From an uncultured Piscirickettsiaceae bacterium (lineage in GTDB: Bacteria > Pseudomonadota > Gammaproteobacteria > Thiomicrospirales > Thiomicrospiraceae): 64,000 nucleotides of DNA. Below are positions 2,009-45,161 of this stretch, piece after piece. How positions within the stretch are numbered: position 1 is the stretch's first letter; each line of letters starts with the position of its first letter. Under the pieces are notes generated by a model. The model saw nothing but the letters and a program-made list of their open reading frames with translations, made no database searches and was not told the origin of the DNA. The DNA is taken from positions 13,034 to 77,033 of the forward strand of contig CAYYIL010000006.1 of assembly GCA_964471975.1 (NCBI GenBank), in the 5' to 3' direction. Both the position numbers and the translations under genes were made by a program.

Positions 2009-3412
2009 ATGAACATCATCATTCTGGGCGCCGGCCAGGTGGGCAGCTCGCTGGCCGCCCTGCTGTCCAAGGACCCCGACAATGACATCACGCTGGTGGA
2101 TGTGGATACCACCCACCTGCAGAAACTGCAGGACCACCTGGATATCCGCACCATCGCCGGGCACGCGTCTGACCCGGCCATTCTCGAGGAAGCGGGGCTG
2201 GAAATGGCCGACATGCTCATCGCCGTGACCCGCAGCGACGAAACCAATCTGGTGGCGTGCCAGCTGGCCTATCTGCTGCACAAAACCCCCACCAAGATCG
2301 CGCGCATCCGCAACACCGCCTATCTCAACCGCCCCGAACTGTTCGACTACCGCAGCAACCCGGACGCCATGCCGGTGGATGTGCTCATCAGCCCGGAAAA
2401 TCTGGTCACCGAGCATATCCTGCGGCTGGTGCAGTATCCGGGCGCCCTGCAGGTGGTGGACTTCGCCGACGGCAAAGTACGGCTGGTGGCCTACCGCGCC
2501 CACCGCCATGGCAAGCTGGTGGGCAAGACGGTGCAGGAGATCAAGGCCACGCTGCCTCCCGACGTGGAAACCCGCATCGTCGCCATCTACCGCCGCGACG
2601 AGGTGGTGATTCCAAGCGGAGAAACGCGTATTCAGATTGGCGACGAAGTCTTCTTTCTGGCCCGCCCCGAGCAGATCGAAACCATCGCACAGGCGCTGCG
2701 CGGCAGCAAGGCCCCCCGCTCCCGCCACATCATGATTGCCGGCGGCGGCAATATCGGCCTGGCCTTGGCGAAGGCGCTGGAAAAGGAGCACATCGTCAAG
2801 GTGATCGAGCACAATCTCAGCCGTGCCCGCTATCTGGCCGAAGAGCTGGACCAGGCCATCGTGGTGCAGGGAGACATCACCGACAAGGAACTGCTTCTGG
2901 ACGAAAACATCGACGAGGTGGGGCTGTTTATCGCCGTCACCAACCGCGACGAAGCCAACATCATCTCCAGCCTGCTGGCCAAGAAGCTGGGGGTGAAGCG
3001 CGTCATCAGCCTGATCAACAACAACACCTTCATCGACCTGCTGCACCTCAACCAGATCGACGTGGCCATCTCCGCCGACCAGATTACCACCAACCGCCTG
3101 CTGCACTATCTGCGCGCGGGCGACACCGTCCGGGCCGTCACCCTGCGCCGCGGCGCCGCCGAAGCCATGGAGGTGGTGCTGCACGGTTCGGAAAACACCT
3201 CGCAGGTGATCGGCAAGCGCCTGATCGACATCCCCTGGCCGGAAAAGGTGACCGTGGGAGCGATCGTGCGCAACGGCGAAGTCCTGTTCGCACGCAAGGA
3301 TCTGGAACTGGAGGCGGAAGATCACATCATCCTCTTTGCCGCCGATCCGAAGACGGTGGATACAGTCTATGCCCTGTTTGCACCGGAAAAACCCAGAAAA
3401 CGGTGGTTCTGA
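2009..3412 (+). CDS. trkA: Trk potassium uptake system NAD-binding protein TrkA
   Basis: Two Rossmann repeats (MNIIILGAGQVGSSLA and IMIAGGGNIGLALA) in a 467-aa protein with full-length TrkA architecture. Confidence 0.9.
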   Translation: MNIIILGAGQVGSSLAALLSKDPDNDITLVDVDTTHLQKLQDHLDIRTIAGHASDPAILEEAGLEMADMLIAVTRSDETNLVACQLAYLLHKTPTKIARIRNTAYLNRPELFDYRSNPDAMPVDVLISPENLVTEHILRLVQYPGALQVVDFADGKVRLVAYRAHRHGKLVGKTVQEIKATLPPDVETRIVAIYRRDEVVIPSGETRIQIGDEVFFLARPEQIETIAQALRGSKAPRSRHIMIAGGGNIGLALAKALEKEHIVKVIEHNLSRARYLAEELDQAIVVQGDITDKELLLDENIDEVGLFIAVTNRDEANIISSLLAKKLGVKRVISLINNNTFIDLLHLNQIDVAISADQITTNRLLHYLRAGDTVRAVTLRRGAAEAMEVVLHGSENTSQVIGKRLIDIPWPEKVTVGAIVRNGEVLFARKDLELEAEDHIILFAADPKTVDTVYALFAPEKPRKRWF

Positions 3413-4863
3413 TGCACCTGCGCATGATTTTCAAGATCATCGGCATCCTGCTTACGGCCTACAGTATCAGCCTGATCCCGCCACTTGCCGTCGCCCTTCT
3501 CTACGGCGACGGGGCGCTCTACTCCTTTGCCGCCGCGCTGCTGCTCACCGCACTGGTGGGAGGCAGCCTCTGGTATGGCCTGCGCCATGAAAAGGCCGAT
3601 CTGAAAATCAAGGACGGTTTTCTGATCGTCATTCTCTTCTGGACGGTTCTGGGGCTGGTGGGCGCCATTCCCTTTCACTTTGCCTGGCACGTACAGCTGA
3701 GCTGGACGGACGCCATCTTCGAGTCCTTTTCCGGCCTGACCACCACCGGTGCCACCGTCATCAGCGGACTGGACAGCCTGCCCCACGCCATCCTGTGGTA
3801 CCGGCAGCAGCTGCAGTGGCTCGGCGGCATGGGGATCATCGTGCTGGCGGTAGCGGTGCTGCCCATGCTGGGCATCGGTGGCATGCAGCTCTATCGCGCC
3901 GAAACACCTGGCCCCATGAAGGACAGCAAACTGGCGCCACGCATCAGCGAAACCGCACGCACGCTCTGGTTCATCTACCTGTGGCTCACCATCGCCTGTG
4001 CCGTTGCCTACAAACTGGCCGGCATGAACTGGTTCGACGCCATCGGCCACAGCTTTTCCACCGTGGCCATCGGCGGCTTTTCCACCCACGACGCCAGCAT
4101 CGGTTACTTCCACAGCGTGAACGTGGAGGTAATTGCCATGGTGTTCATGTATCTGGCCGGCATCAACTTTTCGCTGCACTTCAGCGCCTGGCGCACCCAC
4201 TCCACACGCCCCTACTGGCACGATCCGGAATTCCGCACCTACACCCTGCTGCTCACCAGCGGCATTGTGGTCAGTACGCTCTACTTGTGGCTGTCCAGCA
4301 CCTATGCCGATCCGTGGCAGGCGCTGCGCTATGCCAGCTTCCAGACCATTTCGCTGGCCACCACCACCGGCTACGCCAGTACCGACTACCTGAGCTGGCC
4401 GGCCTTCGTGCCGGTGCTGCTGGTCATCATGAGCTTTGTTGGCGGCTCGGCTGGTTCCACCGGCGGCGGCATGAAGGTGATCCGCTTTCTGCTGTTGTTC
4501 CGGCAGGGGCTGCGTGAGATCGTGCGCCTGCTCCACCCCAATGCGCTGTTTCCCCTCAAGCTGGCCGGCCGCGTGGTACCGGAGCAGGTCATCAGCGCTG
4601 TGTGGGGCTTCTTCTCCCTCTATGTGTTCATCTTTGCTGCCATTGGCCTGGCCATCATGGCCTTCGGCATCGACGCGGTCACCGCCTTTTCGGCTGCCGC
4701 CGCCACGCTCAACAACCTGGGGCCCGGACTGGGCGATGTGGGCAGCAGCTTCGCCACCATGCCGGATCCGGTAAAATGGATCTCAACCTTCGCCATGCTG
4801 CTGGGACGGCTGGAGCTGTTCACGCTGCTGGTAATCTTTACCCGCGCCTTCTGGCGCAGCTGA
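3412..4863 (+). CDS. trkH: Trk potassium uptake permease TrkH
   Basis: ATG at 3412 overlaps the trkA stop (TGATG). Polytopic membrane protein with repeated pore-loop motifs (GLTTTGAT, TVAIGGFSTHD, TTTGYAS, GGSAGSTGGGMK). The upstream part of ORF 2257..4863 is a spurious Arg/Pro/Gly-rich read-through of trkA. Confidence 0.9.
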   Translation: MHLRMIFKIIGILLTAYSISLIPPLAVALLYGDGALYSFAAALLLTALVGGSLWYGLRHEKADLKIKDGFLIVILFWTVLGLVGAIPFHFAWHVQLSWTDAIFESFSGLTTTGATVISGLDSLPHAILWYRQQLQWLGGMGIIVLAVAVLPMLGIGGMQLYRAETPGPMKDSKLAPRISETARTLWFIYLWLTIACAVAYKLAGMNWFDAIGHSFSTVAIGGFSTHDASIGYFHSVNVEVIAMVFMYLAGINFSLHFSAWRTHSTRPYWHDPEFRTYTLLLTSGIVVSTLYLWLSSTYADPWQALRYASFQTISLATTTGYASTDYLSWPAFVPVLLVIMSFVGGSAGSTGGGMKVIRFLLLFRQGLREIVRLLHPNALFPLKLAGRVVPEQVISAVWGFFSLYVFIFAAIGLAIMAFGIDAVTAFSAAAATLNNLGPGLGDVGSSFATMPDPVKWISTFAMLLGRLELFTLLVIFTRAFWRS

Positions 4864-4869
4864 GGTGCC

Positions 4870-5454
4870 ATGACTGCGAAGCAGGCTAAATGGGATGAAA
4901 AATACGCCGATGCGGCGCTGTCCACACCGGCAGAACCGGCATGGGTGCTGCAGGCTCATACCCGCCTGCTACCGCTGCGTGGACGGGCGCTCGATCTGGC
5001 CGCCGGCCTCGGCGGCAATGCCCGCTATCTGGCCCGCTGCGGCCTGCAGGTGGACGCCTGGGACATCAGCGCCACTGCCGTTGACCTGCTCAATCGCTGG
5101 GCCGCCACCTACAAACTGCCCATTCACGCCCATCAGGTGGACCTGGAACAGTATCCCTGGCCAGAAATACACTACGACGTGGTGGTGGTCAGCCGCTATC
5201 TGGATCGTGAGGCGTTTGACGCCATCAAGGCGCTGGTGAAACCGGGCGGTCGCCTGTTCTATCAGACCTTCCTCGCGCCGGTCCAGCCCAACGGGCCGCG
5301 CAACCCCGACTTCTATCTGCGCAGCGGCGAGCTGGTAGAGGCGTTGCTGCCATGGCGCATTGAAGTGCACGGCGAAGGCTGGCTACCCGACAGCGACGGG
5401 GAGAAACGCCGTTACGCCTGGGCAGTCGCCCGGCACGAGGAGGTGGCGCCATGA
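4870..5454 (+). CDS. Class I SAM-dependent methyltransferase (TehB-like size)
   Basis: Motif I ALDLAAGLGGNARYL, followed by VVVSRYL and KPGGRLFYQTF. 194 aa. Confidence 0.65.
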   Translation: MTAKQAKWDEKYADAALSTPAEPAWVLQAHTRLLPLRGRALDLAAGLGGNARYLARCGLQVDAWDISATAVDLLNRWAATYKLPIHAHQVDLEQYPWPEIHYDVVVVSRYLDREAFDAIKALVKPGGRLFYQTFLAPVQPNGPRNPDFYLRSGELVEALLPWRIEVHGEGWLPDSDGEKRRYAWAVARHEEVAP

Positions 5455-6476
5455 TCACTCTGGCCTGTCTCGATCCTGCCTGCCCCATTGAAACGCCGGC
5501 ATCGCTGGAGCAGTTCGTGGCCTTTGCACGCCAACTCATGGACTTTCAGGACATCGGCTGGTGGTGCATTCACTACGAACTGGATCCGGAGCACTTCTAC
5601 TGCAATGCGGCCATGTGTGAGATGTTCGCTCTTCCCGATGACAGCCTTCGCCATCCCATTGCAACAACCTGCCCGATTGCCGGCGATTTCAACCACCATG
5701 TAGCCGAAGTGGATCGCGCCGTGGCTGACAAGATCCTTGCCGATTACCGAGCGCTGCTCGATGGCGAAACAGAAGCCTATGACAACGTGTTCCCCTTTTC
5801 CGATCCCTGCGGTCATGTGCGCTACTTCCGCTCTCAGGCCCGTGTTCTGCAGCGGGGGAATGACGGCCAGCCGACGCTGATTCACGGCCTGCTCATGGAA
5901 ATCACTGCCGAAGTGGAGCTGCAGCATCAACTGCAGGCGGACAAGCTCCATTTCAAGCGGCTCGCACAACTGGACGGCCTGACGGGACTGTTCAATCGAA
6001 ACACCATGCTGACGCTCTGCGAGGAAGGATTGCAGCAGGCTCGACGTCATGACCGACCGCTGGCTCTGTGGTATCTGGATCTGGACCATTTCAAACAGGT
6101 CAACGATGAAGCAGGCCATGCAGAAGGCGACCGCGTCCTGCGCGATTTCTCCCGCCTGCTCAAGCAGTTCTTCAACCGCCCCGATGATCTGATCGGTCGC
6201 CTGGGGGGTGAAGAGTTTCTCGTCTGTACCCGGGGGCCGGACATGGCCGCGCTGCAGGCCATGAAACAGCGCTTTCAGGCACAGCTCCAGGCCACTGCCA
6301 TTCCCACCGGGCGAGAACAACAGCCTGCCCTGACAGTCAGCGGCGGGATCGTGTGGATGGACCCGCTGCAGATTCACTGCGATCTGGAAACACTGCTGCA
6401 GCAGGCGGACGAACTGCTTTATCAGGCCAAGAAGGAAGGCCGTAACCGTCTCAAGCTGGCGCAGGCCCGCTGTTAA
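5451..6476 (+). CDS. Diguanylate cyclase (N-terminal PAS-like sensor + GGDEF domain)
   Basis: DGLTGLFNR, an active-type RLGGEEFLV with an RPDD I-site 5 residues upstream, and C-terminal LLYQAKKEGRNR. Start overlaps the previous stop (ATGA). Confidence 0.85.
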   Translation: MITLACLDPACPIETPASLEQFVAFARQLMDFQDIGWWCIHYELDPEHFYCNAAMCEMFALPDDSLRHPIATTCPIAGDFNHHVAEVDRAVADKILADYRALLDGETEAYDNVFPFSDPCGHVRYFRSQARVLQRGNDGQPTLIHGLLMEITAEVELQHQLQADKLHFKRLAQLDGLTGLFNRNTMLTLCEEGLQQARRHDRPLALWYLDLDHFKQVNDEAGHAEGDRVLRDFSRLLKQFFNRPDDLIGRLGGEEFLVCTRGPDMAALQAMKQRFQAQLQATAIPTGREQQPALTVSGGIVWMDPLQIHCDLETLLQQADELLYQAKKEGRNRLKLAQARC

Positions 6477-6501
6477 GGCTCCGCCGAAAAAATCGGCTCT
6501 G

Positions 6502-6520
6502 AAAAAAATCGGGGACCCCC
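6502..6520 (-). repeat. Inverted 17/18 copy of the recurrent word (GGGGGTCCCCGATTTTTTT on the minus strand)
   Basis: Read directly. It lies between the convergent stops of the diguanylate cyclase (6476) and priA (6535). One C-to-T difference from the 18-mer found at five other sites. Confidence 0.85.
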
Positions 6521-6534
6521 TCTGACAGCGACAT

Positions 6535-8721
6535 TCAGTACAGGTCCACGGGGTCCACATCCAGCGACCACTGCACTGCCGAAGGAGTCTGTCGCCACAG
6601 TCCGTGCACCAGCCGGTGCAGCACCGCATGCAGCGGCTTGCGGCTCTCGCTCTGCAGCAGCAGCTGCCAGCGCCAGTAGCCCTGTCGCCGTGGCATGGGC
6701 GATGGCACCGGCCCCCAGAGGGCGACTGATCCGTCCGCCACCTGTGGCCAGGTCTGCATCGCATCGCGCAGCTGCATCAGAAAGACCTGCGCCGCCTCAC
6801 TGTGATGGCTGCGCACTCGCAGCAGCGCTTGATGGCTGAACGGCGGCAGCCCGGCCAGCTGGCGCTCCTGCAGCGCGGCCTCGGCGAAGGCCTCATAGCC
6901 TCCATCGGCCAGCGTGCGCAGCAGCGGATGATCGGGCTGATGGGTCTGCAATAGGATCTCACTGGCCTGCGCGCGCCGCCCGGCCCGCCCCGCCACCTGC
7001 ACAATCAGCTGCGCCATGCGCTCCGGCGCATGAAAATCGGGGGAAAACAGCCCCTGGTCCATCTCCAGCAGCCCCACCAGCGACACATTGGCGAAATCAT
7101 GCCCCTTGGCCAGCATCTGCGTCCCCAGCAAAATCATCGGCTCGCCCGCGTGCACCCTGGCCAGCTGTTCATCCAGTGCGCCCTTGCGCCGCGTGGTATC
7201 GCGGTCGATACGCACCACGGGCACCTCCGGAAAGGCCTCCGCCATGGCCGCTTCCAGCCGCTCGGTGCCCTGCCCCACGTGCAGCCAGTTGCCACTGCCA
7301 CACTGTGGGCAGGCAGGTGGGACCGGACGCTGATAATCGCAGTGATGGCAGTGCAGATGCTCGGGGCGCGCATGGTAGGTGAGGTGGGTGTCGCAGGCGG
7401 GGCAGTCGGCCTGCCAGCCACAATCGTGGCACATGAGCACCGGGGCAAAGCCGCGCCGGTTGAGAAACAGCAGCACCTGATGGCCCGCCTGCAGATGACG
7501 CGCCATGGCATGACGCAGCGGCGCCGATACGCCGGCCTCGATGCGTTCACCACGGATGTCCAGCAGTTTGATCCGCGGCAGGGCGCCGCCGCCTACACGT
7601 TCGGGCAGGGTCAGGTGCTGATAGCGCCCCGTCCGGGCATGGTGCAGGGTTTCCAGCGAGGGGGTGGCTGAGCCCAGCACCACGGGAATGCCCAGTTGCT
7701 GTGCTCGCCAGATGGCCATGTCGCGGGCGTGGTAGCGCACGCCCTCCTGCTGCTTGTAGGCGGGATCGTGTTCCTCATCCACGATGATGAGGCCCAGATT
7801 TTGAAAGCGGCTGAACAGTGCAGAGCGGGTACCCAGCGCCACCCGCGCCTGACCGCTGGCCAGCATCCACCAGCCGCAGTGGCGTTCGCTGTCGTTCAGG
7901 CCGGAGTGCAGCGCCACCACCGGCTCGCCCAGCCACTGCTCGAAACGGGCCACCATCTGTGGGGTCAGGGCGATTTCCGGCACTAGCACCAGCGCCTGTC
8001 TACCTGCCGCCAGCACCCGCTCCAGCAGGGCCAGATAGACCGCCGTCTTGCCGCTGCCGGTGACGCCCTGCAGCAGGTGAACACCAAATTGCCCGGTGGA
8101 CACGGCCTCGACCACCGCCTGCTGGACATCGGTCAGCCCATGCTGCTCGGCAGCGGGCACCGTGCGAGCCAGACAGGGCCGCTCCAGTGCTTCCACCCAG
8201 CCTCTCGCCTCGAAATTCCGCAATACCGAGCGCCAGTCGTCATGGATTGCCTTCAACGCCCCGGCATCGGCACGGCCCACCGCTTGTAGATGCGCCAGCA
8301 GCGTGCGCTGCCGCACCGCACGAGCAGGCAACTCCTCCACGGCCTGCTGCCGTCCGGCCTCGGTCAATTGCCACACCGGCAGGCCGGCCACTGCCATGGG
8401 CTTGCCCTGTCGCAACGCGACAGGCAGTGCCAGCTGCATCACCTCGCCCAGTGGCGCATGGTAATAGGCGGCCAGCCGCTGGACGAATGCCAGCAGCGTC
8501 TCATCCAGTACCGGTTCTTCATCCAAGACACGTTCGATCGGCTTGAGCCTGTCCGCAGACAGGGAATCGTCTGCAGGCACATCCAGCACCACGCCAATGA
8601 CCTTGCGCCGCTGCAGGGGGACTTCAACGCGCACGCCCGGTGCCACGGGGCCATCGCTGACATAGGTGAGCGCAAAGGGAAAGGGACCGGGCACGGCCAC
8701 GGCAATACGGTGTGAGGTCAT
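6535..8721 (-). CDS. priA: Primosomal protein N' (replication restart helicase PriA)
   Basis: Walker A GVTGSGKT, DEEHD box, a Cys-rich zinc-binding insert (CHDCGWQADCPACDTHLTYH...CHHCDY...CPQCGS) and helicase C-terminal motifs. 728 aa. Confidence 0.95.
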   Translation of the reverse strand: MTSHRIAVAVPGPFPFALTYVSDGPVAPGVRVEVPLQRRKVIGVVLDVPADDSLSADRLKPIERVLDEEPVLDETLLAFVQRLAAYYHAPLGEVMQLALPVALRQGKPMAVAGLPVWQLTEAGRQQAVEELPARAVRQRTLLAHLQAVGRADAGALKAIHDDWRSVLRNFEARGWVEALERPCLARTVPAAEQHGLTDVQQAVVEAVSTGQFGVHLLQGVTGSGKTAVYLALLERVLAAGRQALVLVPEIALTPQMVARFEQWLGEPVVALHSGLNDSERHCGWWMLASGQARVALGTRSALFSRFQNLGLIIVDEEHDPAYKQQEGVRYHARDMAIWRAQQLGIPVVLGSATPSLETLHHARTGRYQHLTLPERVGGGALPRIKLLDIRGERIEAGVSAPLRHAMARHLQAGHQVLLFLNRRGFAPVLMCHDCGWQADCPACDTHLTYHARPEHLHCHHCDYQRPVPPACPQCGSGNWLHVGQGTERLEAAMAEAFPEVPVVRIDRDTTRRKGALDEQLARVHAGEPMILLGTQMLAKGHDFANVSLVGLLEMDQGLFSPDFHAPERMAQLIVQVAGRAGRRAQASEILLQTHQPDHPLLRTLADGGYEAFAEAALQERQLAGLPPFSHQALLRVRSHHSEAAQVFLMQLRDAMQTWPQVADGSVALWGPVPSPMPRRQGYWRWQLLLQSESRKPLHAVLHRLVHGLWRQTPSAVQWSLDVDPVDLY

Positions 8722-22429: not shown

Positions 22430-23503
22430 TTAGAAGCCTTTGTGACCAACGCCTGGTGCAGAATCATGATAACGCTGCGGTACGTTGTACTGCAGTTCAC
22501 CATTCGGCAGGCGGCGAGCCTGACGGAAGTGGTGGATATCACCCGCACCGTCGCCAACCAGGTAGTCCGGGCAGTCCTTCATGCACCGCTTGTTGTGCGT
22601 AATCGGACGGTGATCACAGAAGAAGTTGCCCTGGTTCTTCATGTACTTATTGGCCGCGATAATGACCTGCGGAGTCGCCTTATCGCTGTCATCCAGCTCG
22701 GTACCCTTATCATCGATGGGGATGCCGTTAGACTGGATCAGGTAGGCCGCAATGCCCAGATAGCCCTTGTCACCGATGGCCGGAGACTGGGGTGACCAGA
22801 AGGGCATGGCCCGACGGCTGTAGTCGAAGATGGTGATTGCATACGGCCAGTAGTTGCCAATGGTCTTCATGGGTGCCGGATCGCGGAAGTCGGAGGTCAC
22901 CAGATCTTCATCCACCGCCAGCGGCAGGTAGCCCTTGGCCCCTTCACCGAACTCACCGTGACACATGCCGCAGAACTGCACGTAGATGTTGCCACCCTTT
23001 TCAACGGTGACCGCTTCGTCTGCTGAAATCTTCGGGAAGCCGTTGCCGTCACCATCCACATCGATCATCCACGGCTTGATGGCGGATTCGGCAATCGGCT
23101 TGCCATAACCGTACGCGACATAGTCTGATTTCTCATGCTTCTCGGCGCTGTCCCATACTTCGACCCACGCCTTCGGCACCTTACACTGACTGTTGCCGTG
23201 CGGGCCACCGTCGATGGCGTCGTCCACCTCAAAGGAGTAGGGGTTGTTGGGATCCAGCTTGGCACGCAGGGAGTTCACATCCGGACCAAGGATCTTTTCC
23301 ATCACCTCACGGTCCAGATACTTGCCACCGTTCGCCTTGATGATTTCGCGGTAGTTGGCAGCCCACTTGCCTTCAATCTTGCCCGCCTGTGCGGCCGTCT
23401 TGCCGCCCTTGTCGCTGCTGCTCATGGCAAAGGCTGAACCGGCTGCCATGGCGGCAACCACTGCAGCGGCGATCAGAGATTTCTTAGTATTGAACATTTT
23501 CAA
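22430..23503 (-). CDS. soxD: SoxD-like c-type cytochrome subunit of sulfite/sulfane dehydrogenase
   Basis: Signal peptide KKSLIAAAVVAAMAAGSAFA, a single CGMCH heme site, and NYWPYAITIFDYSRRAMPFWSP. TTG start at 23503 lies 5 nt after GGAGG (alternative ATG at 23497). Overlaps the soxC stop by 20 nt. Confidence 0.75.
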   Translation of the reverse strand: MKMFNTKKSLIAAAVVAAMAAGSAFAMSSSDKGGKTAAQAGKIEGKWAANYREIIKANGGKYLDREVMEKILGPDVNSLRAKLDPNNPYSFEVDDAIDGGPHGNSQCKVPKAWVEVWDSAEKHEKSDYVAYGYGKPIAESAIKPWMIDVDGDGNGFPKISADEAVTVEKGGNIYVQFCGMCHGEFGEGAKGYLPLAVDEDLVTSDFRDPAPMKTIGNYWPYAITIFDYSRRAMPFWSPQSPAIGDKGYLGIAAYLIQSNGIPIDDKGTELDDSDKATPQVIIAANKYMKNQGNFFCDHRPITHNKRCMKDCPDYLVGDGAGDIHHFRQARRLPNGELQYNVPQRYHDSAPGVGHKGF

Positions 23504-24836
23504 TCAAGCCTCCGTTTTTGCTATCCCAGGCATGTACGCGCCATGTCACCATCGCGGTGCGGTGGTAAACGTTGTTGGTGCCTTCGATGGCACGCATCTG
23601 CGGCATCGGCGGCTGTACGTAGCCGGTTTCGTCGGTGACGCGGCTCATCAGGAAGGCTTCCTTGCCGTCCCAATCCCATTCGATTTCGAAACGGGTCCAC
23701 GCCTTGTCCAGTACCGGCGAAGTGAAGTGCGCTTCGTGCCAGTTCTTGCCGCCGTCGAAGGTGACGTCCACATGGGCCACCTTGCCGCGACCGGACCAGG
23801 CCAGCCCCTTAACCACATAGCGACCCGGCCCCTGCATGCGGTAGTCCGGAGACGGATAGGTAATGACGGAGTTGGGCTCCATGTACCAGGAGAAGCGCTG
23901 TGCGGTTCCGTCCGGCATCAGCTCGGTGTACTTGGAGGTCTCTTCGCGGTGCTGCAGCGGCACATCGGAAACCTTGATGCGGCGCAGGTACTTCACCCAC
24001 ATGTTGGCTTCACAGCCCGGGACCACCAGACGGATCGGATAGCCCTGCTCGCGACGCAGCGCTTCACCGTTCTGCGCATAGGCGACAAAGCAGTCGTCCA
24101 TGGCGATTTCCAGCGGGATGGAACGGGACATGCCGGAAGCGTCATCGCCTTCAGGAATGATCCAGCGCGCCTTGTCCAGCTTAATGCCGGCTTCCTTCAA
24201 CAGATCAGACAGACGTACACCGGTGTATTCCACGCAGGACATCATGCCGTGGGTCCACTGTACGGAGTTCAGCTGCACGCCCTTCCATTCCATCGCGCCG
24301 TTGGCGGGACACTCGATGAAGTGAATGCGGGAGATGGAGGGGAAGCGCTTCAGATCATCAACGGTGAAAATCAGCGGACGCTCGACCAGACCGTGAATCA
24401 CCAGGCGGTGTTTTTTGGGATCGATGTCTGCCGCCCCGCCGTGGAAGCGCTCAAAGTGCAGACCATTGGGGGTGATGATACCGTGCAGGCTCTGAATGGG
24501 GGTCATGGTGATGGACGCGTAGGTGTCCGGCGTCAGCCATTCCAGCGTACGGCGTACCACGTCCTTCTCGTAGGGCGAGGGCACACCGTAGGGGTATTTC
24601 ATGACACCGAAGCCCAGACGATGACGCATTGCGCCATCCTTCACAGGCTCAGTAATCTCCTTCTGGCCCGCGTAAGGCGCCACAGCCTTCTTGGGGTCAT
24701 AGTCGGCGGAGGCGGCCTTGGTAAACAGCACGCCACCGGCGACGGCCGCAGTACCCTTCAGAAAGGCGCGGCGGCTCTGGCTGCGGCTCTCCTCGGATTG
24801 CACTGCAACCTTTTCTTCAACGCGATTATCAGTCAT
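23484..24836 (-). CDS. soxC: SoxC-like molybdopterin sulfite/sulfane dehydrogenase
   Basis: Tat signal SRRAFLKGTAAVAGG and a sulfite-oxidase-family Moco domain (HGLVERPLIFTVDDLKRFP...FIECPANG). ATG at 24836 follows AAGGAG. Confidence 0.8.
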   Translation of the reverse strand: MTDNRVEEKVAVQSEESRSQSRRAFLKGTAAVAGGVLFTKAASADYDPKKAVAPYAGQKEITEPVKDGAMRHRLGFGVMKYPYGVPSPYEKDVVRRTLEWLTPDTYASITMTPIQSLHGIITPNGLHFERFHGGAADIDPKKHRLVIHGLVERPLIFTVDDLKRFPSISRIHFIECPANGAMEWKGVQLNSVQWTHGMMSCVEYTGVRLSDLLKEAGIKLDKARWIIPEGDDASGMSRSIPLEIAMDDCFVAYAQNGEALRREQGYPIRLVVPGCEANMWVKYLRRIKVSDVPLQHREETSKYTELMPDGTAQRFSWYMEPNSVITYPSPDYRMQGPGRYVVKGLAWSGRGKVAHVDVTFDGGKNWHEAHFTSPVLDKAWTRFEIEWDWDGKEAFLMSRVTDETGYVQPPMPQMRAIEGTNNVYHRTAMVTWRVHAWDSKNGGLIENVQY

Positions 24837-25082
24837 TGATAGTGCTCCTTGATTGGTATTCTTGCTCGGTAACACCAACAGTCAGTGCCTGCACTTAAGG
24901 CACCTCCACAGTGTGCCTGCAGCACAAGCGGTTGTGTTGGCCTGTCCGTTCAACTACAAGCGGACAGGTCGCACAAGCGTGTCCTGCAATCTTAACGTGG
25001 CAATAGAAAGCGGCGCAAGATAACGAATTCAAAAAATCATTAAATCCTGATATAAATTTTTTATGAGGGCGGCAACCCCCTT

Positions 25083-38446: not shown

Positions 38447-40842
38447 CCACAACCCTGATTACAGCAGGGATCGGGCTCAAAGGTCGCCGCCTCATCCAGC
38501 GGCATGGGCCGCGCATAGACGAAGCCCTGAACATGGCTGGCCACCTCGCTGAAGCGGCGACACATGGCACCATCCTCAATGCCCTCGAACACCACATCGT
38601 AGCCCAGCTCACGCAGGGAGCGTGCCAGCCCGACGATGAGCTCGCCACTGCGCGCATCCCCATGGGCCGCCAGCACCAGTGCGCGGTCGAACTTGATGAT
38701 ATCGGCACTCAGGTGCGCAAGATAGGAAATGGACGAATAGCCGCTGCCGAAATCGTCGATGGCTACCTTGAAGCCCATGGCGCGCAGATCGCCGAGGGTT
38801 TTCTGAGCCGTGGAAAGGTCCTGCACCAGCGTGGTCTCGGTCACTTCCAGCACAATCTTGTGATCGGTCGTGTAGGGGGCCAGATCACGCAGCCAGTCTT
38901 TCAGGTCGGGATGCTGCAGCGCCTCCGCACTCAGGTTAATGGAAAAGCCGCGATTGCAGGGGCTGGCCTGCAGCCGTGCGGTCATCTGCTCGATGACGCG
39001 CTGATCAAACGCCGCCTGCAGATGCAGTCGCTCCACCAGCGGTAGAAAAACAGCCGGTGAAATGGTGCGCCCTTCCACAGACATGCGCGCCAGAATCTCG
39101 CAATACTCCACCCGCTCATCCGCGGTGCGCACCACAGGCTGGGCCACCAGTTCCAGCCCGGTGCCGTCACGCACCATCTGCGCCACTGCCTGCGCATCGG
39201 CATAGTCCAGCGGCGCCTGATCGCCATGCACCGCCGGCTGATAGCGCTGCACCTTGCGGTCCAGTGCATGCTTGGCAGCGCGCATGGCCATGTCCGCCTG
39301 CTTCAGCGCCTCGCTCAGCGTTACCGGCACACGTAGATCGAGCCAGCTCCAGCCGATGCTGATGGACAGCCGCGCCGTCATACCGAGATTTTCCGGCGGA
39401 TAGTCGTACAGCACGTGGAGGAACTTCTCCAGACAGTGCTCGAACTGCTGCGGCGTCATGTCCATGGCCACAATGGCAAACTCATCGCCAGAGAGACGGT
39501 AAACGGTGGCCCCCTTCTGCCGCAGCGACTCCAGTGTGGCAGCCACATGCATCAGCACGTGGTTGCCCACCTCGCCACCGTAGGTTTCGTTGATCTCGTG
39601 GAAAAAATCGATGTCCAGGATAGCCACGCCCGCTTCATCGTGCACCCTGATCAGCTCGGGCCAGCGTTCTTCCAGCGCCAGACGGTTGGGCAGGTGGGTG
39701 AGCGCATCCTCAAACGCCCGCTTGCGCAGGGCACGATGGGCGCGCTCCAGTGCCTGAGTGCGTTCGGCCACGCGCTGTTCCAGCTGGGCATTCAGGCTTT
39801 CCAGCGCTGCCTGCTTGTGCTGCACCGTCTGCAGCAGCGCATTGGTCTGCTCCACCACGGTGGCCACTTCATCCACGGCGCCCGGCAGCAGCGTCACTGC
39901 ACCCTGCCCGCCGCCACACACGCCGTGCACCGAATCGGACGCCACCTGCAACGGCTTGATAACCTTGCGCCAGAGCACCCGTCCCAGCCCCAGCATGAGC
40001 CCTAGCAGCAGTAGCAACGGCACGGCAATGGTTTCCAGCGCCAGCTGCAACGCTTTCTGCAACAGAGCGGCTGATTGCACTATGACAAAACCGGACGCGC
40101 CATGATTGAAGACATAGGCTGGCGTGGGCAGCCACAGCTGCACCTGCCCTGTCTCGAGCACCTGCCACCACAGAGAGTGGTGCAGCCGGGCCTGTACCAT
40201 TGGCGGAGGCTGCAGATAAAAGGTGACCAGTCGGCTGTGCAGCAATCCCTGCAGATAGGGGGCCGGCTCACCATGCGACACCAGTTTGCGGATCAGATAG
40301 AGGTCGCCCGCACGATCACCGATGTCGTACCGCACGGGAATACGCACCAGCTGATACAGACCCGGCCGGGCAAATATCTGCCGCCATGGGGCTTGCGCGA
40401 AGCCATCGTTGATCAGGTGAAAAAGCGTGCGCTGCGGAGGCAGACGGGTGAGTACCGCCGGCAGATGGTTCAGGAACTGATGTCCGTCCGGCGTGTAGAG
40501 GCGCCCATCCTCACCCATGAAGACCACGCCATGCAGATTGAACTGACGCTTAATCTGATACAGCAGCGCACTGAGTGCAGCGGGGCGCTCCGTCTCTTCC
40601 GCCGCCGCGATGGGCGCCTTGAAAAAGCCTACCGCCCTGCTGATCAGCGCAAACTTCTGCGCCTCGCTGACCAGCCACAGATGCAGTTCGCCCTGAATCT
40701 CGATCTGTACCTGTTCGGATTCTCGCTGTGCCACCCCCTGCGCCATCCACAGCTGAAAGGCCCCCACCGCCAGTACACTGACGATCACACCAATCATTAC
40801 GGCGCGGAAATAGCGCAACAGCGAAATGCGTGCAGTCGCCAC
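38425..40842 (-). CDS. Membrane sensor with periplasmic domain + GGDEF + EAL domains
   Basis: TM1 near residue 15 and TM2 near residue 280, a coiled linker, DALTHLPNR...RLSGDEFAIV, then an EAL domain (CEILARM, DDFGSGYSS). The GTG start overlaps the rhodanese stop (TAGTG). Confidence 0.85.
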   Translation of the reverse strand: MATARISLLRYFRAVMIGVIVSVLAVGAFQLWMAQGVAQRESEQVQIEIQGELHLWLVSEAQKFALISRAVGFFKAPIAAAEETERPAALSALLYQIKRQFNLHGVVFMGEDGRLYTPDGHQFLNHLPAVLTRLPPQRTLFHLINDGFAQAPWRQIFARPGLYQLVRIPVRYDIGDRAGDLYLIRKLVSHGEPAPYLQGLLHSRLVTFYLQPPPMVQARLHHSLWWQVLETGQVQLWLPTPAYVFNHGASGFVIVQSAALLQKALQLALETIAVPLLLLLGLMLGLGRVLWRKVIKPLQVASDSVHGVCGGGQGAVTLLPGAVDEVATVVEQTNALLQTVQHKQAALESLNAQLEQRVAERTQALERAHRALRKRAFEDALTHLPNRLALEERWPELIRVHDEAGVAILDIDFFHEINETYGGEVGNHVLMHVAATLESLRQKGATVYRLSGDEFAIVAMDMTPQQFEHCLEKFLHVLYDYPPENLGMTARLSISIGWSWLDLRVPVTLSEALKQADMAMRAAKHALDRKVQRYQPAVHGDQAPLDYADAQAVAQMVRDGTGLELVAQPVVRTADERVEYCEILARMSVEGRTISPAVFLPLVERLHLQAAFDQRVIEQMTARLQASPCNRGFSINLSAEALQHPDLKDWLRDLAPYTTDHKIVLEVTETTLVQDLSTAQKTLGDLRAMGFKVAIDDFGSGYSSISYLAHLSADIIKFDRALVLAAHGDARSGELIVGLARSLRELGYDVVFEGIEDGAMCRRFSEVASHVQGFVYARPMPLDEAATFEPDPCCNQGCGQASAPM

Positions 40843-41654
40843 TACTTCCGCCCTCCACCGCTTAAGTCAGCCCCCGTCCCCATTGCACCCAGCAGACGAG
40901 CCGGTTTTGCCTCCAACCCTGCACAGCCGCGCGTGCGCGCCCCCTGCAGGCCGCCGCGCACCACACCCCGCACATCAAAGCCCTTGTGAATAAGGTACTT
41001 GCCCACCACCACCGACTGGCGCATGGCCACATCGGCAATCAGAATCGGCCGATTCCTGGGCAACGTGTCCAGCAGTCGGTCGAGCGCATAGGTGGGAATC
41101 TGCACACTGCCCGGCAGGAACCATTGCGGCGAAGCCAGCCAGTCAGGCCGCACATCCAGCACAAAAGGGCGGCTGGCCGGTGGCCGCTTCAGCAGCGTCT
41201 GCACCTCGGCACAGCCCAGTTTGTGCACGCGGAGACCGGCATAGAGCGAATTCACCCACAGGGGGTAGTCGAACTGGCGCCATTCGGGAATGCCGCCGCG
41301 AAACCAGACCACCTGCGTATAACCGCGCTTGAGGGCCGCTTCGACCGCAAAGCGGCTGTAATTGCACTTGAGCCCCATGCAGTAGAACACAAGCGGTGCG
41401 TCCTTGCGCGGCGGCAGCTGCTCCGTAGTCGCCACTTCATTGGCCGGGATATTGATGCTGCCCGGAATATGCTGACTGGCAAACTCGATGCGACTAAGAG
41501 CATTAATAAGAAGCGGGTGCTGGGGCGACTGCAGCCAGCGCCACAGCTCCGGCGCGGTAATGACGCGCACACGCTGCTCCAACGGCATGACAGCGTCCGC
41601 CTGAGCAAGAGCGGCAAACAGGGCGGCGAAAACCAGCAAAAAAATTTTGGGCAT
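40842..41654 (-). CDS. Periplasmic tandem rhodanese-domain protein
   Basis: Signal peptide MPKIFLLVFAALFAALAQADA. The first domain has the active-site loop FYCMGLKCN. The second rhodanese-like domain has no Cys at that position (ADVAMRQS). Confidence 0.7.
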   Translation of the reverse strand: MPKIFLLVFAALFAALAQADAVMPLEQRVRVITAPELWRWLQSPQHPLLINALSRIEFASQHIPGSINIPANEVATTEQLPPRKDAPLVFYCMGLKCNYSRFAVEAALKRGYTQVVWFRGGIPEWRQFDYPLWVNSLYAGLRVHKLGCAEVQTLLKRPPASRPFVLDVRPDWLASPQWFLPGSVQIPTYALDRLLDTLPRNRPILIADVAMRQSVVVGKYLIHKGFDVRGVVRGGLQGARTRGCAGLEAKPARLLGAMGTGADLSGGGRK

Positions 41655-41817: not shown

Positions 41818-42399
41818 TCAGGCGCGCAACTGCACTGTGCAAGACGCCTTCAGCCGGGCCGCCTGCGCCGCGCTGTGGCTCACCCACACCGCCCCCCGCC
41901 CTGGCGCCGCAGCCAGATACTCCTGCAGCAGAGATTCAACCCGGATGGCTGTGGCGTCATCCAGATTGGCCGTGGGCTCGTCCAGAAGCAGAATGCGCGG
42001 CTGACGCACCAGCCCGCGCAGCAGCGCCAGCCGCTGCTGTTCGCCACTGGAGAGCATGGCAATGGGCTTTTCCAGTAGCTCGGGCGCAAGCTCCAGCGCC
42101 GCCAGCCAGTCTGGGGACGGCGGAGACATAAAGTGCTGCGCCGCCGTGTCACGCCACCAGGCCGGCTGTGCCGGAAAGTACATCACCGCGGCCCGCCAGT
42201 CGCACGGCTTCCACCGTTGCTGTGGCATATCATCCAGCAGAATGTTACCTTCGTGCGGGTCCAGATCCGCCAGCGCGCGCAGCAGGCGCGACTTGCCGCT
42301 GCCGGACGGTCCCTGCACCAGCAAGATCTCGCCCGTCTGCAGCGCCAGATCCACTGGTGCGGCCATACCCGCACTGAACACGCGTGATGCTCGGAACAC
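41818..42399 (-). CDS. fetA: FetA/YbbL-like ABC transporter ATP-binding protein
   Basis: Walker A GPSGSGKS, signature LSSGEQQR and Walker B ILLLDEPT. GTG start at 42399. Short (193 aa), like YbbL-type ATPases. Confidence 0.65.
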   Translation of the reverse strand: MFRASRVFSAGMAAPVDLALQTGEILLVQGPSGSGKSRLLRALADLDPHEGNILLDDMPQQRWKPCDWRAAVMYFPAQPAWWRDTAAQHFMSPPSPDWLAALELAPELLEKPIAMLSSGEQQRLALLRGLVRQPRILLLDEPTANLDDATAIRVESLLQEYLAAAPGRGAVWVSHSAAQAARLKASCTVQLRA

Positions 42400-42487
42400 G
42401 TCTTTACCTTCATCGAGAGACTAAAAACAAGGGCGCGCCCGGCCTGTGCCGTGACGCGCCCCAAAAAGCTTTTTGACCTTGGTCAGC

Positions 42488-43186
42488 TTAACACATGACC
42501 TGCATGGCGCTGTAGTCCTTGCCACCGGTCACAACACTCTGACCGGAAACCGCCTGTTTGTAGGCCCGGCGACCGTATTCCTTTTTCAGCTTGCGCTTGT
42601 AGGCGCGGAAAAATGCCTTGAGGGGATCATGCCCGTACAATCCTTCTGCCCAGTAGGTATCCGTGGCCTTGTCCCACGCCAGCTTAACCGCCATCAGCGG
42701 ATCGGGCGCCGGCCCCTTGGTGACCTTGCCGCCCTGCAGGGGATCATAAACGCTGTTGTGGGCACAGCAGACGATCTGACCTGCGCCGCCGGCCACCTCG
42801 CTCTTGCCCGGATTGTAGTTCATCATGCTCAGCTGCCTGCTGGGGTACTGCAGCTGATGCTGACAGATGGCCAGAAATGCCACCACCGACTGCTGCGGTC
42901 CCACACCGCCCAGCCACTGGTATTGGCTGCCGTCCTCTTCGCTCAGCTCCACGCCGCCCTTGACCGGCTGCCCAAGATCGATCAGAAAGCAGGGTGTCGA
43001 ACGATAGGGATAGGCGAACACGTATTCGGTACGAGGCTGAATCGCCTTGCTGGTCAATGGCTTGCCATCCGCCCCTACAAGCTGGACCCGCTCGAAATCG
43101 AGCGTAGCGGCATAGGTGAGAAATTGCGGCACCGCCGCAGCAGCTACCCCCGCTGCACAGGTCTTGATGAATGCACGTCGCTTCAT
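42488..43186 (-). CDS. Tat-exported Rieske-type [2Fe-2S]-like protein, partner of the FccB-like flavoprotein
   Basis: Tat motif KRRAFIK. Ligand pattern C-Q-H, 29 residues, then C-C-A-H-NSVYDP..GGKV.KGPAPDPL. No CXXCH heme site. Confidence 0.55.
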   Translation of the reverse strand: MKRRAFIKTCAAGVAAAAVPQFLTYAATLDFERVQLVGADGKPLTSKAIQPRTEYVFAYPYRSTPCFLIDLGQPVKGGVELSEEDGSQYQWLGGVGPQQSVVAFLAICQHQLQYPSRQLSMMNYNPGKSEVAGGAGQIVCCAHNSVYDPLQGGKVTKGPAPDPLMAVKLAWDKATDTYWAEGLYGHDPLKAFFRAYKRKLKKEYGRRAYKQAVSGQSVVTGGKDYSAMQVMC

Positions 43187-43250
43187 GCTGATTTCCTCCT
43201 TGAAAAAAGGGCGCCGCAGCGCCCCAACGAACCGCCTTTTGCACCGCGAT

Positions 43251-44636
43251 TCAGTTGATCATGTCGTTGTACATGCCTTCTGCCCAGGCGAGATTGGCCT
43301 GTCCCAGCTGCGGGCTCCACTGTTCCTTGAGGATGACGTCGGTAAAGCCAGCCAGCTGACGACCCTTGTATTTGTATTTGGCATCCACCATGATGGATTC
43401 GAGCGGGTCGGTCTTGACCGCCGAATAGCAGATGGTATGCGGGCTTTCCCATTTGGGCAACGGCTTGCCCTGGGCGTGCGCTGCCACCACCTTGGCCACA
43501 TAGTGCGCCTCGGAGTTGGACGTGTTGCCCGACTTGGAGTACCCCATGGGACGCGCGTCACCGGTCACATAGACGTGCTCGTCGCCCTTGGCCTGATAGG
43601 TGAACGGATCGATATCCGCTTCAAACTGTGTGCCCGGCTTGACCAGATCCATCATTTCGATCAGCTTGGCGCCGCGCACCGGCGGATAGATGGCCGCATC
43701 GGCGAAATCGTAGGTATCCCTGAAGCCTTCGGTTTCGGCGATCACCTGCTGCTTCTCGGCATCCACACCCACGATATTGACGCCCGGCACGTATTCCACA
43801 TAGTCCTTGTAAAGGGTATCGTAAGCATGGTGGAAGCCGTCGCGCTTGATGGTAATGTCCGGGTTCATATCCAGCACGACAACCTTGCCCTTGATCTTGT
43901 TCTTCTTGAAGTAATCGGCCACCAGACAGGCGCGCTCATAAGGCCCCGGCAGACAGCGGTAGTTGCCGGAAGGCACCGTCTGAATAAAGATGCCACCGTC
44001 AAAGTCTTCCAGCTTGCCGCGCAGGGTCAGGTGCTCGGACCCCGGCATGAATCCGGCCGGGAACTTCTTGCGCAGAATCCATTCATGATCCACATCCACG
44101 CCGATCTTGCGGTAGTTGTAGTCGATGCCGGGGGCGACCACCAGGTAGTCATACTTGATGGCACCACGGTCGGTATAGAGGATGCGGCTGTCCCGATCTG
44201 CGGTAATGGCCGTGGCGTTATAGAAGATATAGCCGTTGTTGCGCGCGGCGTCATCATAGGAGTGCAGCAGGAAGTCCGTGTCCACCGCGCCGGCCAGCCA
44301 GATATTGCTGATGGGGCAGGACATGAACATGCTGTTCTTTTCCACCAGCACCACATCGAACTTGTCGTAGTATTTCTTCAGATATTTGGCCATGGTCAGC
44401 CCCGACCAGCCGCCGCCGATCACCACTGCACGCGGCCCCTTGGGCTTGGGCAGGTCGGCTGGACTGCTGATCAGTGCGGGTGCATGCCCGCCCGCCGTCT
44501 CTGCCTTGGTGGGGTTTGACTGACAGGCACCCATCATGGCGGCGCCGGCACCGGCCGCCGCTCCGCCCATGAATTTCAGCACCCCGCGACGGGAGACTCT
44601 GGCTTTGCTGTTGTCATCCATATGCTTTCTCCTCAT
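43251..44636 (-). CDS. FccB/SoxF-like periplasmic FAD-dependent sulfide dehydrogenase flavoprotein
   Basis: Tat motif SRRGVLKF, dinucleotide fold AVVIGGGWSGLTMAKYLKK, then FMSCPISNIWLAG, resembling the FCSD redox-Cys region. Alternative start at 44621. Confidence 0.7.
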   Translation of the reverse strand: MRRKHMDDNSKARVSRRGVLKFMGGAAAGAGAAMMGACQSNPTKAETAGGHAPALISSPADLPKPKGPRAVVIGGGWSGLTMAKYLKKYYDKFDVVLVEKNSMFMSCPISNIWLAGAVDTDFLLHSYDDAARNNGYIFYNATAITADRDSRILYTDRGAIKYDYLVVAPGIDYNYRKIGVDVDHEWILRKKFPAGFMPGSEHLTLRGKLEDFDGGIFIQTVPSGNYRCLPGPYERACLVADYFKKNKIKGKVVVLDMNPDITIKRDGFHHAYDTLYKDYVEYVPGVNIVGVDAEKQQVIAETEGFRDTYDFADAAIYPPVRGAKLIEMMDLVKPGTQFEADIDPFTYQAKGDEHVYVTGDARPMGYSKSGNTSNSEAHYVAKVVAAHAQGKPLPKWESPHTICYSAVKTDPLESIMVDAKYKYKGRQLAGFTDVILKEQWSPQLGQANLAWAEGMYNDMIN

Positions 44637-45161
44637 GAAGGCTTTGTCATAACGCCATCCACTGAAGGTGACGGCCTATTTTCAAATGCAGTGCCGCATT
44701 GCCACGACGCTGCATATCAGGCATGAACAGCATAAATAAAAACAACCTGTTGCGGCATTCAAAAAAAATATAAAACCCTTTCAAAATACAATAATATAAT
44801 TAACAGCCAATATAAACAAAACATCTTATAATTCAATGTAATGGGAAAACTTGCTCAATTAAAGAATGATGTTTATACCAAGAAGTGGATAAACTTTTTA
44901 TATAAAAAACATGAAATGAACGGATAAAAAGAAACCTGTTCTGCCAGCCAAGCCAGTAAAAATATAGAGAGGAGAAAGGAGAAGATGTCTATGCAGCGCT
45001 CGTAAACATGGGCACCTCCGCAAAACCTATGAATGCGCTCGCGTTGCAGGCGCGATGGCAGCAGATTCAAGGCGCGCGGCGCAGCCTTTGGTGGCGCCAA
45101 AGGCAAGACGTGCAACACAGAAGATGCTGCCATCCCGCCGCAACCCGAAGGGACAGGCCCG

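Follow-up and report, generated by a model that had tools for sequence, protein, structure and literature searches.

The window analysed here is a stretch of 64,000 nucleotides from an uncultured Piscirickettsiaceae bacterium (GenBank assembly GCA_964471975.1, contig CAYYIL010000006.1), whose genome of 1.78 Mb comes from a hot-spring metagenome. On its minus strand lie two adjacent genes for redox proteins, one encoding a flavoprotein (P0001) and the other a Rieske-type iron-sulfur protein (P0002), and this gene pair is the subject of the present work:

43251-44636, minus strand: flavoprotein gene (P0001), 461 aa counted from the first ATG
43187-43250: spacer of 64 bp between the two genes
42488-43186, minus strand: Rieske gene (P0002), 232 aa, downstream of the flavoprotein gene

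Known enzymes in the family of flavocytochrome c sulfide dehydrogenases (FCSD) are flavoprotein-cytochrome c heterodimers or else single flavoproteins (PMC3504083, together with the solved FccB structures in the Protein Data Bank, PDB). On balance, we consider it probable that the pair described here encodes a periplasmic and probably membrane-tethered sulfide dehydrogenase of the FCSD kind, with an AioB-like Rieske [2Fe-2S] subunit in place of the cytochrome FccA as the electron acceptor. The original prediction for this stretch had proposed an FccB-like flavoprotein with a partner that is exported by the twin-arginine translocation (Tat) system and is of the Rieske type instead of a c-type cytochrome. 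This description agrees with the motifs, the profile hidden Markov model (HMM) searches, the recurrence of the gene pair and the clade-specific choice of partner presented below.

The motifs read earlier in the flavoprotein are all present, namely the Tat motif SRRGVLKF (residues 15-22), GGGWSG (72-77) and SCPISN (106-111). The suggested HMM searches gave the anticipated domains for both proteins: P0001 matched the Pfam models FCSD_central (7e-24, 84.6 bits against a cut-off of 27) and Pyr_redox_2 (3.9e-11), and P0002 matched Rieske. The C-terminal FCSD flavin-binding domain (PF09242) scored 20.8 bits on P0001 (E 5e-4), under its cut-off of 26, and the Tat model TIGR01409 scored 15.9 bits, just under its cut-off of 16.7; the RR pair of the motif is invariant in 20 orthologues of the flavoprotein. 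In a sequence search of the PDB, the best solved relatives were FccB chains (5n1t, 3e-46; 3vrd, 7e-41; 1fcd, 9e-39), whereas structures of sulfide:quinone oxidoreductase (SQR) matched at 4e-12 or worse. The best NCBIfam model for SQR reached 76 bits against a cut-off of 525, so by sequence P0001 is not of the SQR type. The alignments place the FAD-binding Cys42 of FCSD (a covalent link to flavin adenine dinucleotide) at P0001 Cys107, the redox pair Cys161/Cys337 at Cys228/Cys403 and the active-site Glu167 at Glu234, and the three cysteines Cys107, Cys228 and Cys403 are invariant in the 20 orthologues. The assignment of P0001 as an FCSD- or FccB-like protein thus stands, given the far better match to FccB than to SQR and the retention of the FCSD catalytic residues.

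In the Rieske protein, the reported motifs were likewise recovered: KRRAFIK at residues 2-8, CQH at 108-110, CCAH 29 residues further on at 140-143, and NSVYDP..GGKV.KGPAPDPL after it, with no C-x-x-C-H motif, as had been stated. P0002 scored 19.8 bits on the Tat model, above the cut-off of 16.7, and in 20 Rieske orthologues the first Arg of the motif is invariant and the second is present in at least 90%. Its match to the Pfam Rieske model was barely over the cut-off (21.0 bits against 20.3). The NCBIfam models SoxL2 (TIGR03171; 2e-22, 79.5 bits) and AioB (TIGR02694; 8e-15, 54.9 bits) gave scores under their cut-offs of 582 and 95.65, respectively, in the first case far under it, and the nearest solved structures by sequence were Sulfolobus SoxF (1jm1, 5e-14) and AioB (2e-6). 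All four cluster ligands (Cys108/His110 and Cys140/His143) are invariant in the 20 orthologues; among wider relatives, C108 is kept in 203 of 204 and H110 in 202 of 204. An AlphaFold2 (AF2) model built from the 20-orthologue alignment has a mean predicted local distance difference test (pLDDT) score of 80.4 with a confident core and low values for residues 3-26 and the tail (226-232). A Foldseek search with this model returned solely Rieske proteins at E <= 0.001, with AioB chains on top (E 5e-9, TM-score 0.80 on the target) and Sulfolobus SoxF also among the nearest structures; look-alikes in the ESM Atlas were generic Rieske and hypothetical clusters only. The predicted fold, the AioB matches and the invariant ligands therefore agree that P0002 is of the Rieske type.

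The likeness to AioB extends beyond the fold, as AioB is also exported by Tat and serves as the electron-exit subunit of arsenite oxidase (AioAB), passing electrons to a soluble cytochrome c or azurin, and some AioB proteins likewise lack the Rieske disulfide. The two systems differ in the catalytic partner, which is here a flavoprotein and not the molybdopterin/[3Fe-4S] subunit AioA, and P0002 is about 100 aa longer than AioB, with a CC-x-H box and a C-terminal extension ending in Cys. Sulfolobus SoxF (1JM1) and SoxL2 provide the best sequence matches to the Rieske core of P0002; unlike it, they are archaeal respiratory-complex subunits that retain the classical disulfide and are not paired with a flavoprotein. 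The possibility that P0002 is a stray copy of aioB was considered and rejected, as it scores under the AioB cut-off and a true aioBA lies at a separate locus on another contig of the same genome (contig C1, locus L033): AioB is encoded at 3440-4117 on the plus strand (TIGR02694, 188.5 bits) and AioA at 4136-6607 on the plus strand (TIGR02693, 1255 bits). Beside aioBA lies a divergent gene for a phosphonate-binding-type (AioX-like) periplasmic protein (2551-3408, minus strand). With aioBA and this AioX-like gene, the organism, a sulfur oxidiser that has a small genome and comes from a hot spring, probably oxidises arsenite as well.

The flavoprotein domains, the Tat signal, the FAD-binding Cys, the redox Cys pair, the Glu and the arrangement as a periplasmic two-gene unit are shared with FccAB of Allochromatium vinosum (1FCD), Thermochromatium tepidum (3VRD) and Thioalkalivibrio paradoxus (5N1T). 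The partner differs, being a Rieske [2Fe-2S] protein and not a mono- or dihaem cytochrome c, and its gene lies downstream, not upstream. The flavoprotein also departs from FccB, to which it is about 30-35% identical, in forming a separate clade (support 100/100) and in having a probable lipoprotein anchor. No open reading frame (ORF) with a CXXCH motif is found near the pair: bar one likely spurious ORF within uvrD, the only one in the window is a soxD-like ORF about 19 kb away (22430-23503, minus strand; 357 aa, with a signal peptide and one CXXCH). Because the cytochrome subunit, one defining feature of FccAB, is missing, the pair should not be filed under that name; by analogy, it would most likely work like FccAB with a different exit subunit.

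The choice of partner follows the phylogeny of the flavoproteins. In a set of 22 canonical FccB homologues from an even sample of 400 genomes across the class, one of them a paralogue from this genome, a small ORF carrying one or two CXXCH motifs lies upstream of 18 and a Rieske gene accompanies none (0/22), whereas members of the P0001 clade have a Rieske gene downstream in 23 of 28 cases. In a maximum-likelihood tree, the P0001 clade is split from the cytochrome-linked FccB proteins by a branch 2.12 changes per site long (ultrafast bootstrap/SH-aLRT 100/100). The phylogeny that had been suggested as a check thus separates P0001 from cytochrome-linked FccB, in a tree that covers these two groups only, not the SQR and proven SoxF clades, and is to be read as unrooted. 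The paralogue in the same genome is an FccB-like gene (contig C1, locus L032, 4766-6154, minus strand) with a cytochrome c gene directly upstream (6060-7247, minus strand). As the genome holds both this cytochrome c/FccB pair and a true aioBA, P0002 is neither the AioB of the organism nor a stand-in for a missing FccA. The cytochrome c of the paralogue is a 395-aa lipoprotein with one C-terminal CAQCH and Asp-rich repeats of the DGDGIPN type. The paralogue itself has Pro at the position of the FAD-binding Cys42 (YYTPILSNE) and a very long branch in the tree (2.7).

The same gene order was found at no fewer than 28 loci, in Piscirickettsiaceae/Thiomicrorhabdus, Gallionellaceae, Thiobacillaceae and Hydrogenophilales. 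A word-indexed protein search with P0002 returned few relatives, including a Thiomicrorhabdus protein named 'Rieske 2Fe-2S domain-containing protein', and an FCSD_central flavoprotein gene lies directly upstream of the Rieske gene both in a Thiomicrorhabdus genome and on a metagenome contig unrelated to it, with different flanks. A pattern scan of one genome per species with the Rieske profile gave 21 loci in Piscirickettsiaceae, Thiomicrorhabdus heinhorstiae, Gallionellaceae, Thiobacillaceae and Hydrogenophilales. In 21 of 21, the gene immediately upstream on the same strand encodes a homologue of P0001 (47-78% identity), a figure that is biased because the search patterns were derived from paired sequences. 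In three metagenome loci (L001-L003), the flavoprotein gene is again directly upstream on the same strand. Since the order recurs in many genomes with unrelated flanking genes, which vary between loci, the pairing goes beyond chance.

Three features around the two genes, all read on the minus strand, are relevant to their expression:

42423-42462, minus strand: terminator-like hairpin with a U-run, immediately past the Rieske stop codon and ahead of a FetA-like ABC ATPase gene
43208-43225, minus strand: intergenic GC hairpin with a 7-bp stem (6 GC) followed by a T-run, just 5' of the strong AGGAGG Shine-Dalgarno sequence of the Rieske gene
44637-45000, minus strand: AT-rich region upstream of the flavoprotein gene, with the sole promoter-like hexamer pair on the strand (44836-44809, TTGAAT-16-TATATT), a consensus match only

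The terminator-like hairpin has a predicted folding energy of -33.6 kcal/mol (z -4.1), and 0 of 200 shuffled sequences were equally stable; because this strong hairpin follows the Rieske stop codon, the pair forms a closed two-gene unit. The intergenic hairpin, whose folding energy is ordinary relative to shuffled sequence (z -0.55), may serve within the operon as an attenuator or to stabilise the mRNA. Translation of the flavoprotein probably begins at the second ATG (44621, Met6) rather than at the first, since the second lies 7 nt past a GAGGAG.

Several observations besides the bias of the pattern scan weigh against reading the two proteins as subunits of one enzyme. The even sample of 400 genomes contained 21 other genomes with a full-length Rieske-family member, a family found in about 5% of the sampled gammaproteobacterial genomes, and 9 other genomes with a P0001-type flavoprotein (above 450 bits, the next best match being at 241 bits). 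The adjacent pair occurs in only 3 of them, that is, for 3 of the 9 clade flavoproteins and 3 of the 21 Rieske genes. In four genomes, a clade flavoprotein (50-54% identity) has nothing comparable adjacent and there is no Rieske-family gene genome-wide; in a fifth, a gene for a dihaem cytochrome c lies directly upstream instead. The flanks of twelve Rieske-family genes, which are 33-42% identical to P0002, contain no flavoprotein gene; they were covered to about ±8 kb for eight of the genes and about ±1.5 kb for four. No fused flavoprotein-Rieske protein was found among the longer proteins, which is weak evidence; the longer profile matches P0139, P0098, P0094 and P0058 were dismissed as fusions, being chimeric or over-extended gene calls. 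The co-occurrence of the two genes, proposed as a check of the original prediction, is seen for 23 of 28 members of the flavoprotein clade, and for 3 of 9 flavoproteins and 3 of 21 Rieske genes in the even sample.

The physical association of the two proteins was assessed by complex prediction, with both alignments, FAD and a [2Fe-2S] cluster as input. The P0001-P0002 complex obtained an interface score (ipSAE) of 0.48 (runs 0.48, 0.48 and 0.60), and the best of 3 controls obtained 0.00. Out of 80 solved complexes, 58 reach the mark that this score passes, and out of 110 mismatched pairs, 2 do so; scores passing it at 0.60 or under come from just 7 of the 80 solved complexes together with both of those mismatches. 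Contacts are shared between runs to at least 95%, with a partner pLDDT of at least 89. The modelling thus weakly supports a physical association of P0001 and P0002. Leu229 and positions in the loop 366-374 (Ser367, Asn371, Thr372) are invariant in Rieske-linked flavoproteins and variable in clade members without a Rieske partner, and in the sequence comparison they are candidate interface residues only.

These results bear on an alternative in which the two genes are co-regulated neighbours and their products are not subunits: P0001 would be a monomeric sulfide dehydrogenase similar to SoxF or DhsU1 that reduces cytochrome c directly, and the Rieske protein would be a separate periplasmic carrier serving several donors and acceptors. 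Clade flavoproteins in genomes without any Rieske-family gene, Rieske-family members that stand beside other redox genes without the flavoprotein, and the weak complex prediction all speak for it, as does the activity of monomeric FCSD-type flavoproteins with cytochrome c in vitro (PMC3504083). We nevertheless judge this alternative unlikely, as the gene order, the common strand and the short spacing hold strictly over a range of 39-78% identity and between differing flanks, the genes form a bicistronic unit with its own terminator, a downstream Rieske gene and an upstream cytochrome c gene are complementary between clades, and the controls of the complex test were all 0.00. What had been predicted as a two-subunit flavoprotein/[2Fe-2S] oxidoreductase is thus retained as regards the conservation of the pair, whereas the association is weakly supported (ipSAE 0.48) and the link is non-obligatory for both families.

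The original prediction left the substrate unassigned; sulfide is the most likely one. SoxF of Paracoccus pantotrophus and DhsU1 of a Sulfurihydrogenibium-like bacterium (PMC3504083) are also FCSD-type proteins that oxidise sulfide without a bound cytochrome subunit. Unlike the present pair, those enzymes were examined in monomeric form, with cytochrome c from horse heart, and no role was given to the Rieske ORF of the DhsU1 cluster. In the 2012 study (PMC3504083), this Rieske ORF is drawn without comment between the FCSD-type genes dhsU1 and dhsU2 of a Sulfurihydrogenibium-like hot-spring Aquificae bacterium, and recombinant DhsU1 alone oxidised sulfide with horse cytochrome c, but not sulfur, sulfite or thiosulfate. 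The dhsU-cluster Rieske ORF is likened here to P0002 by gene context only.

An enzyme of the same flavo-Rieske type acting on polysulfide, thiosulfate, an organic thiol or persulfide, or a protein-bound persulfide seems quite unlikely to us. In such a case, the long branch of 2.12 changes per site between the clades would reflect a change of specificity. About 49 columns are invariant in the Rieske-linked flavoproteins and shared by at most 20% of canonical FccB sequences, and since so many clade-invariant residues are rare in canonical FccB, a changed substrate is possible; this, too, counts against sulfide dehydrogenation. The cytochrome-linked FccB paralogue in the same genome would leave room for divergence, and the SulP-STAS-Usp transporter and the two-component system beside betaproteobacterial pairs could also fit another substrate. 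Sulfide remains favoured by the invariance of the full FCSD catalytic set (Cys107, Cys228, Glu234 and Cys403), by the named hosts, which all belong to sulfur- or iron-oxidiser lineages, and by the tested relative from the cluster with a Rieske ORF, which used sulfide only.

In the betaproteobacterial loci (L002, L003, L010, L015, L018, L020, L021 and L023), the pair is flanked by genes for an OmpR-type response regulator and a HAMP-HisKA kinase, often together with the gene for a SulP-STAS-Usp fusion transporter. Judging from gene context, they are candidates for the regulation of the pair and for transport associated with it. One of these loci, from Gallionellaceae (L010), has a second, divergent Rieske copy immediately behind the first (6956-7684, plus strand; 38% identity to P0002), giving the order flavoprotein, Rieske, Rieske.

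In the mechanism that we favour for a sulfide dehydrogenase with a Rieske exit subunit, both proteins would acquire their fold and their cofactors in the cytoplasm before export by Tat. The signal peptide of P0001 ends in a lipobox-like MMGAC, with Cys at this position in most orthologues, and the flavoprotein would probably be lipid-anchored through this Cys. Sulfide would attack the Cys228-Cys403 disulfide next to the FAD bound at Cys107, giving a persulfide or polysulfide product and reduced FAD. The two electrons would then pass, one at a time, to the Rieske cluster, and from there to a soluble high-potential acceptor (cytochrome c, a high-potential iron-sulfur protein or similar) and on to an oxidase, in the manner of AioB in arsenite oxidase.

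Electrons might take a different route if the Rieske protein were itself anchored in the membrane by an uncleaved Tat signal, as in the Rieske protein of the bc1 complex, and exchanged electrons with a membrane cytochrome b or the quinone pool, making the pair a sulfide:quinone-type module. The twelve flavoprotein-free Rieske genes mentioned above are of interest in this respect. They form one clade in a quick tree (SH-aLRT 99), nested among flavoprotein-linked lineages with AioB as a long-branch outgroup. Their loci (L036, L038-L050) adjoin a convergent ankyrin-repeat gene and a gene for an FdhC/FdnI-like cytochrome b that is extended by 130 aa at its N-terminus, and 3-4 of them also carry a formate-dehydrogenase-like Mo subunit and a 4Fe-4S subunit; from its gene content, this neighbourhood may be another uncharacterised redox module. 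The linkage of this sister clade to a cytochrome b gene is a point for a membrane-bound Rieske protein, and so is Cys10 inside the Tat signal (RRxF[IVL]KxC), which is kept in 176 of 204 relatives and would be unexpected if the signal peptide were merely removed. We regard this arrangement as very unlikely for the pair, however: one protein query found no homologue of the FdhC-like cytochrome b in this genome, the paired loci have no membrane-protein gene in or beside the unit, and the nearest structural relatives of P0002 are the soluble AioB subunits.

P0002 lacks the classical Rieske disulfide (C-x-H-x-G-C ... C-x-C-H), as a second Cys is absent from box I and the sequence of box II is C-C-A-H. 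It has instead an extra Cys141 beside the box II ligand and a family-specific C-terminal extension of about 50 aa whose last residue is Cys232. The last residue is Cys in 166 of 204 full-length Rieske relatives, and a terminal Cys co-varies in the family with the extra Cys next to the box II ligand:

174 sequences: both box II CC and a terminal or near-terminal Cys
15 sequences: box II CC without a terminal or near-terminal Cys
8 sequences: neither box II CC nor a terminal or near-terminal Cys
1 sequence: a terminal or near-terminal Cys without box II CC

Many of the 15 sequences with CC only resemble mis-called C-termini, and the clean double losses may stem from just one or two events. The terminal-Cys hallmark and this co-variation are new in the present analysis. 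Their simplest reading, from the alignment, is that Cys141 and Cys232 probably form a disulfide that substitutes for the lost classical one. As the flavoprotein-free clade likewise has the terminal Cys, this residue probably serves the Rieske protein itself and not the flavoprotein specifically. A more elaborate role, by analogy with the C-terminal Cys arms of SoxY and DsrC, is that Cys141 and Cys232 act as a redox-active dithiol/disulfide or persulfide 'swinging arm', which would accept sulfane sulfur from a flavoprotein persulfide while the cluster receives the electrons. A single subunit would then couple both processes, with other partners in the flavoprotein-free clade. In the AF2 model, Cys232 lies on a low-confidence and apparently flexible tail; we consider such an arm decidedly unlikely.

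An exhaustive profile search yielded 556 Rieske-family representatives at 50% identity, 112 of them below 1e-30, and the word-indexed search gave at least 439 clusters at 90% identity. In a number of distant members (P0042, P0044, P0056, P0065, P0077, P0082, P0087 and others), the second His ligand is replaced by Asp or Glu, some having a His one residue further on (CCAEH) and others none (CCSDGS, CCSEGS), which hints that the cluster of these proteins is ligated differently. Public names for the family are 'arsenite oxidase small subunit', 'Rieske Fe-S protein' or hypothetical, and one member comes from the cultured Sulfuriferula plumbiphila. The pair belongs to no characterised enzyme family, in line with the original prediction: it has no specific NCBIfam or Pfam model, its public names are generic, and no description of a flavoprotein-Rieske pair as an enzyme was found in the full-text literature searched.

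If the proposed function is correct, the flavoprotein-Rieske form would give a central sulfur-oxidation enzyme a third architecture, and the electron-exit subunit would be exchangeable within one clade, being a cytochrome c, a Rieske protein or none. The AioB-type design, with a Rieske protein as the exit subunit, would extend from molybdenum enzymes to a flavoenzyme. The reading of metagenomes would change as well, since fccB-like genes now serve as markers of sulfide oxidation whatever their partner. The automatic naming of the Rieske gene as 'arsenite oxidase small subunit' could inflate counts of arsenic metabolism, and the family itself, with its 439 or more clusters, is uncharacterised and bears an unexplained terminal-Cys hallmark. 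Cultured hosts exist in Thiomicrorhabdus heinhorstiae and Sulfuriferula plumbiphila, which makes the question directly testable.

The sulfur-metabolism setting described earlier for the pair holds in part. The window does contain a rhodanese-domain gene (40842-41654) as well as soxC (23484-24878, minus strand; TIGR04555, 597 bits against a cut-off of 420), which is followed by the soxD-like ORF. The rhodanese gene lies outside the unit of the pair, and its membership in the same operon was ruled out, as the strong terminator and the FetA-like ABC ATPase gene intervene. The latter gene (41818-42399, minus strand) lies beyond the terminator of the pair. On an unrelated contig, the chimeric gene call P0094 joins a Rieske-family protein to an ABC ATPase, so the adjacency of these two genes may recur.

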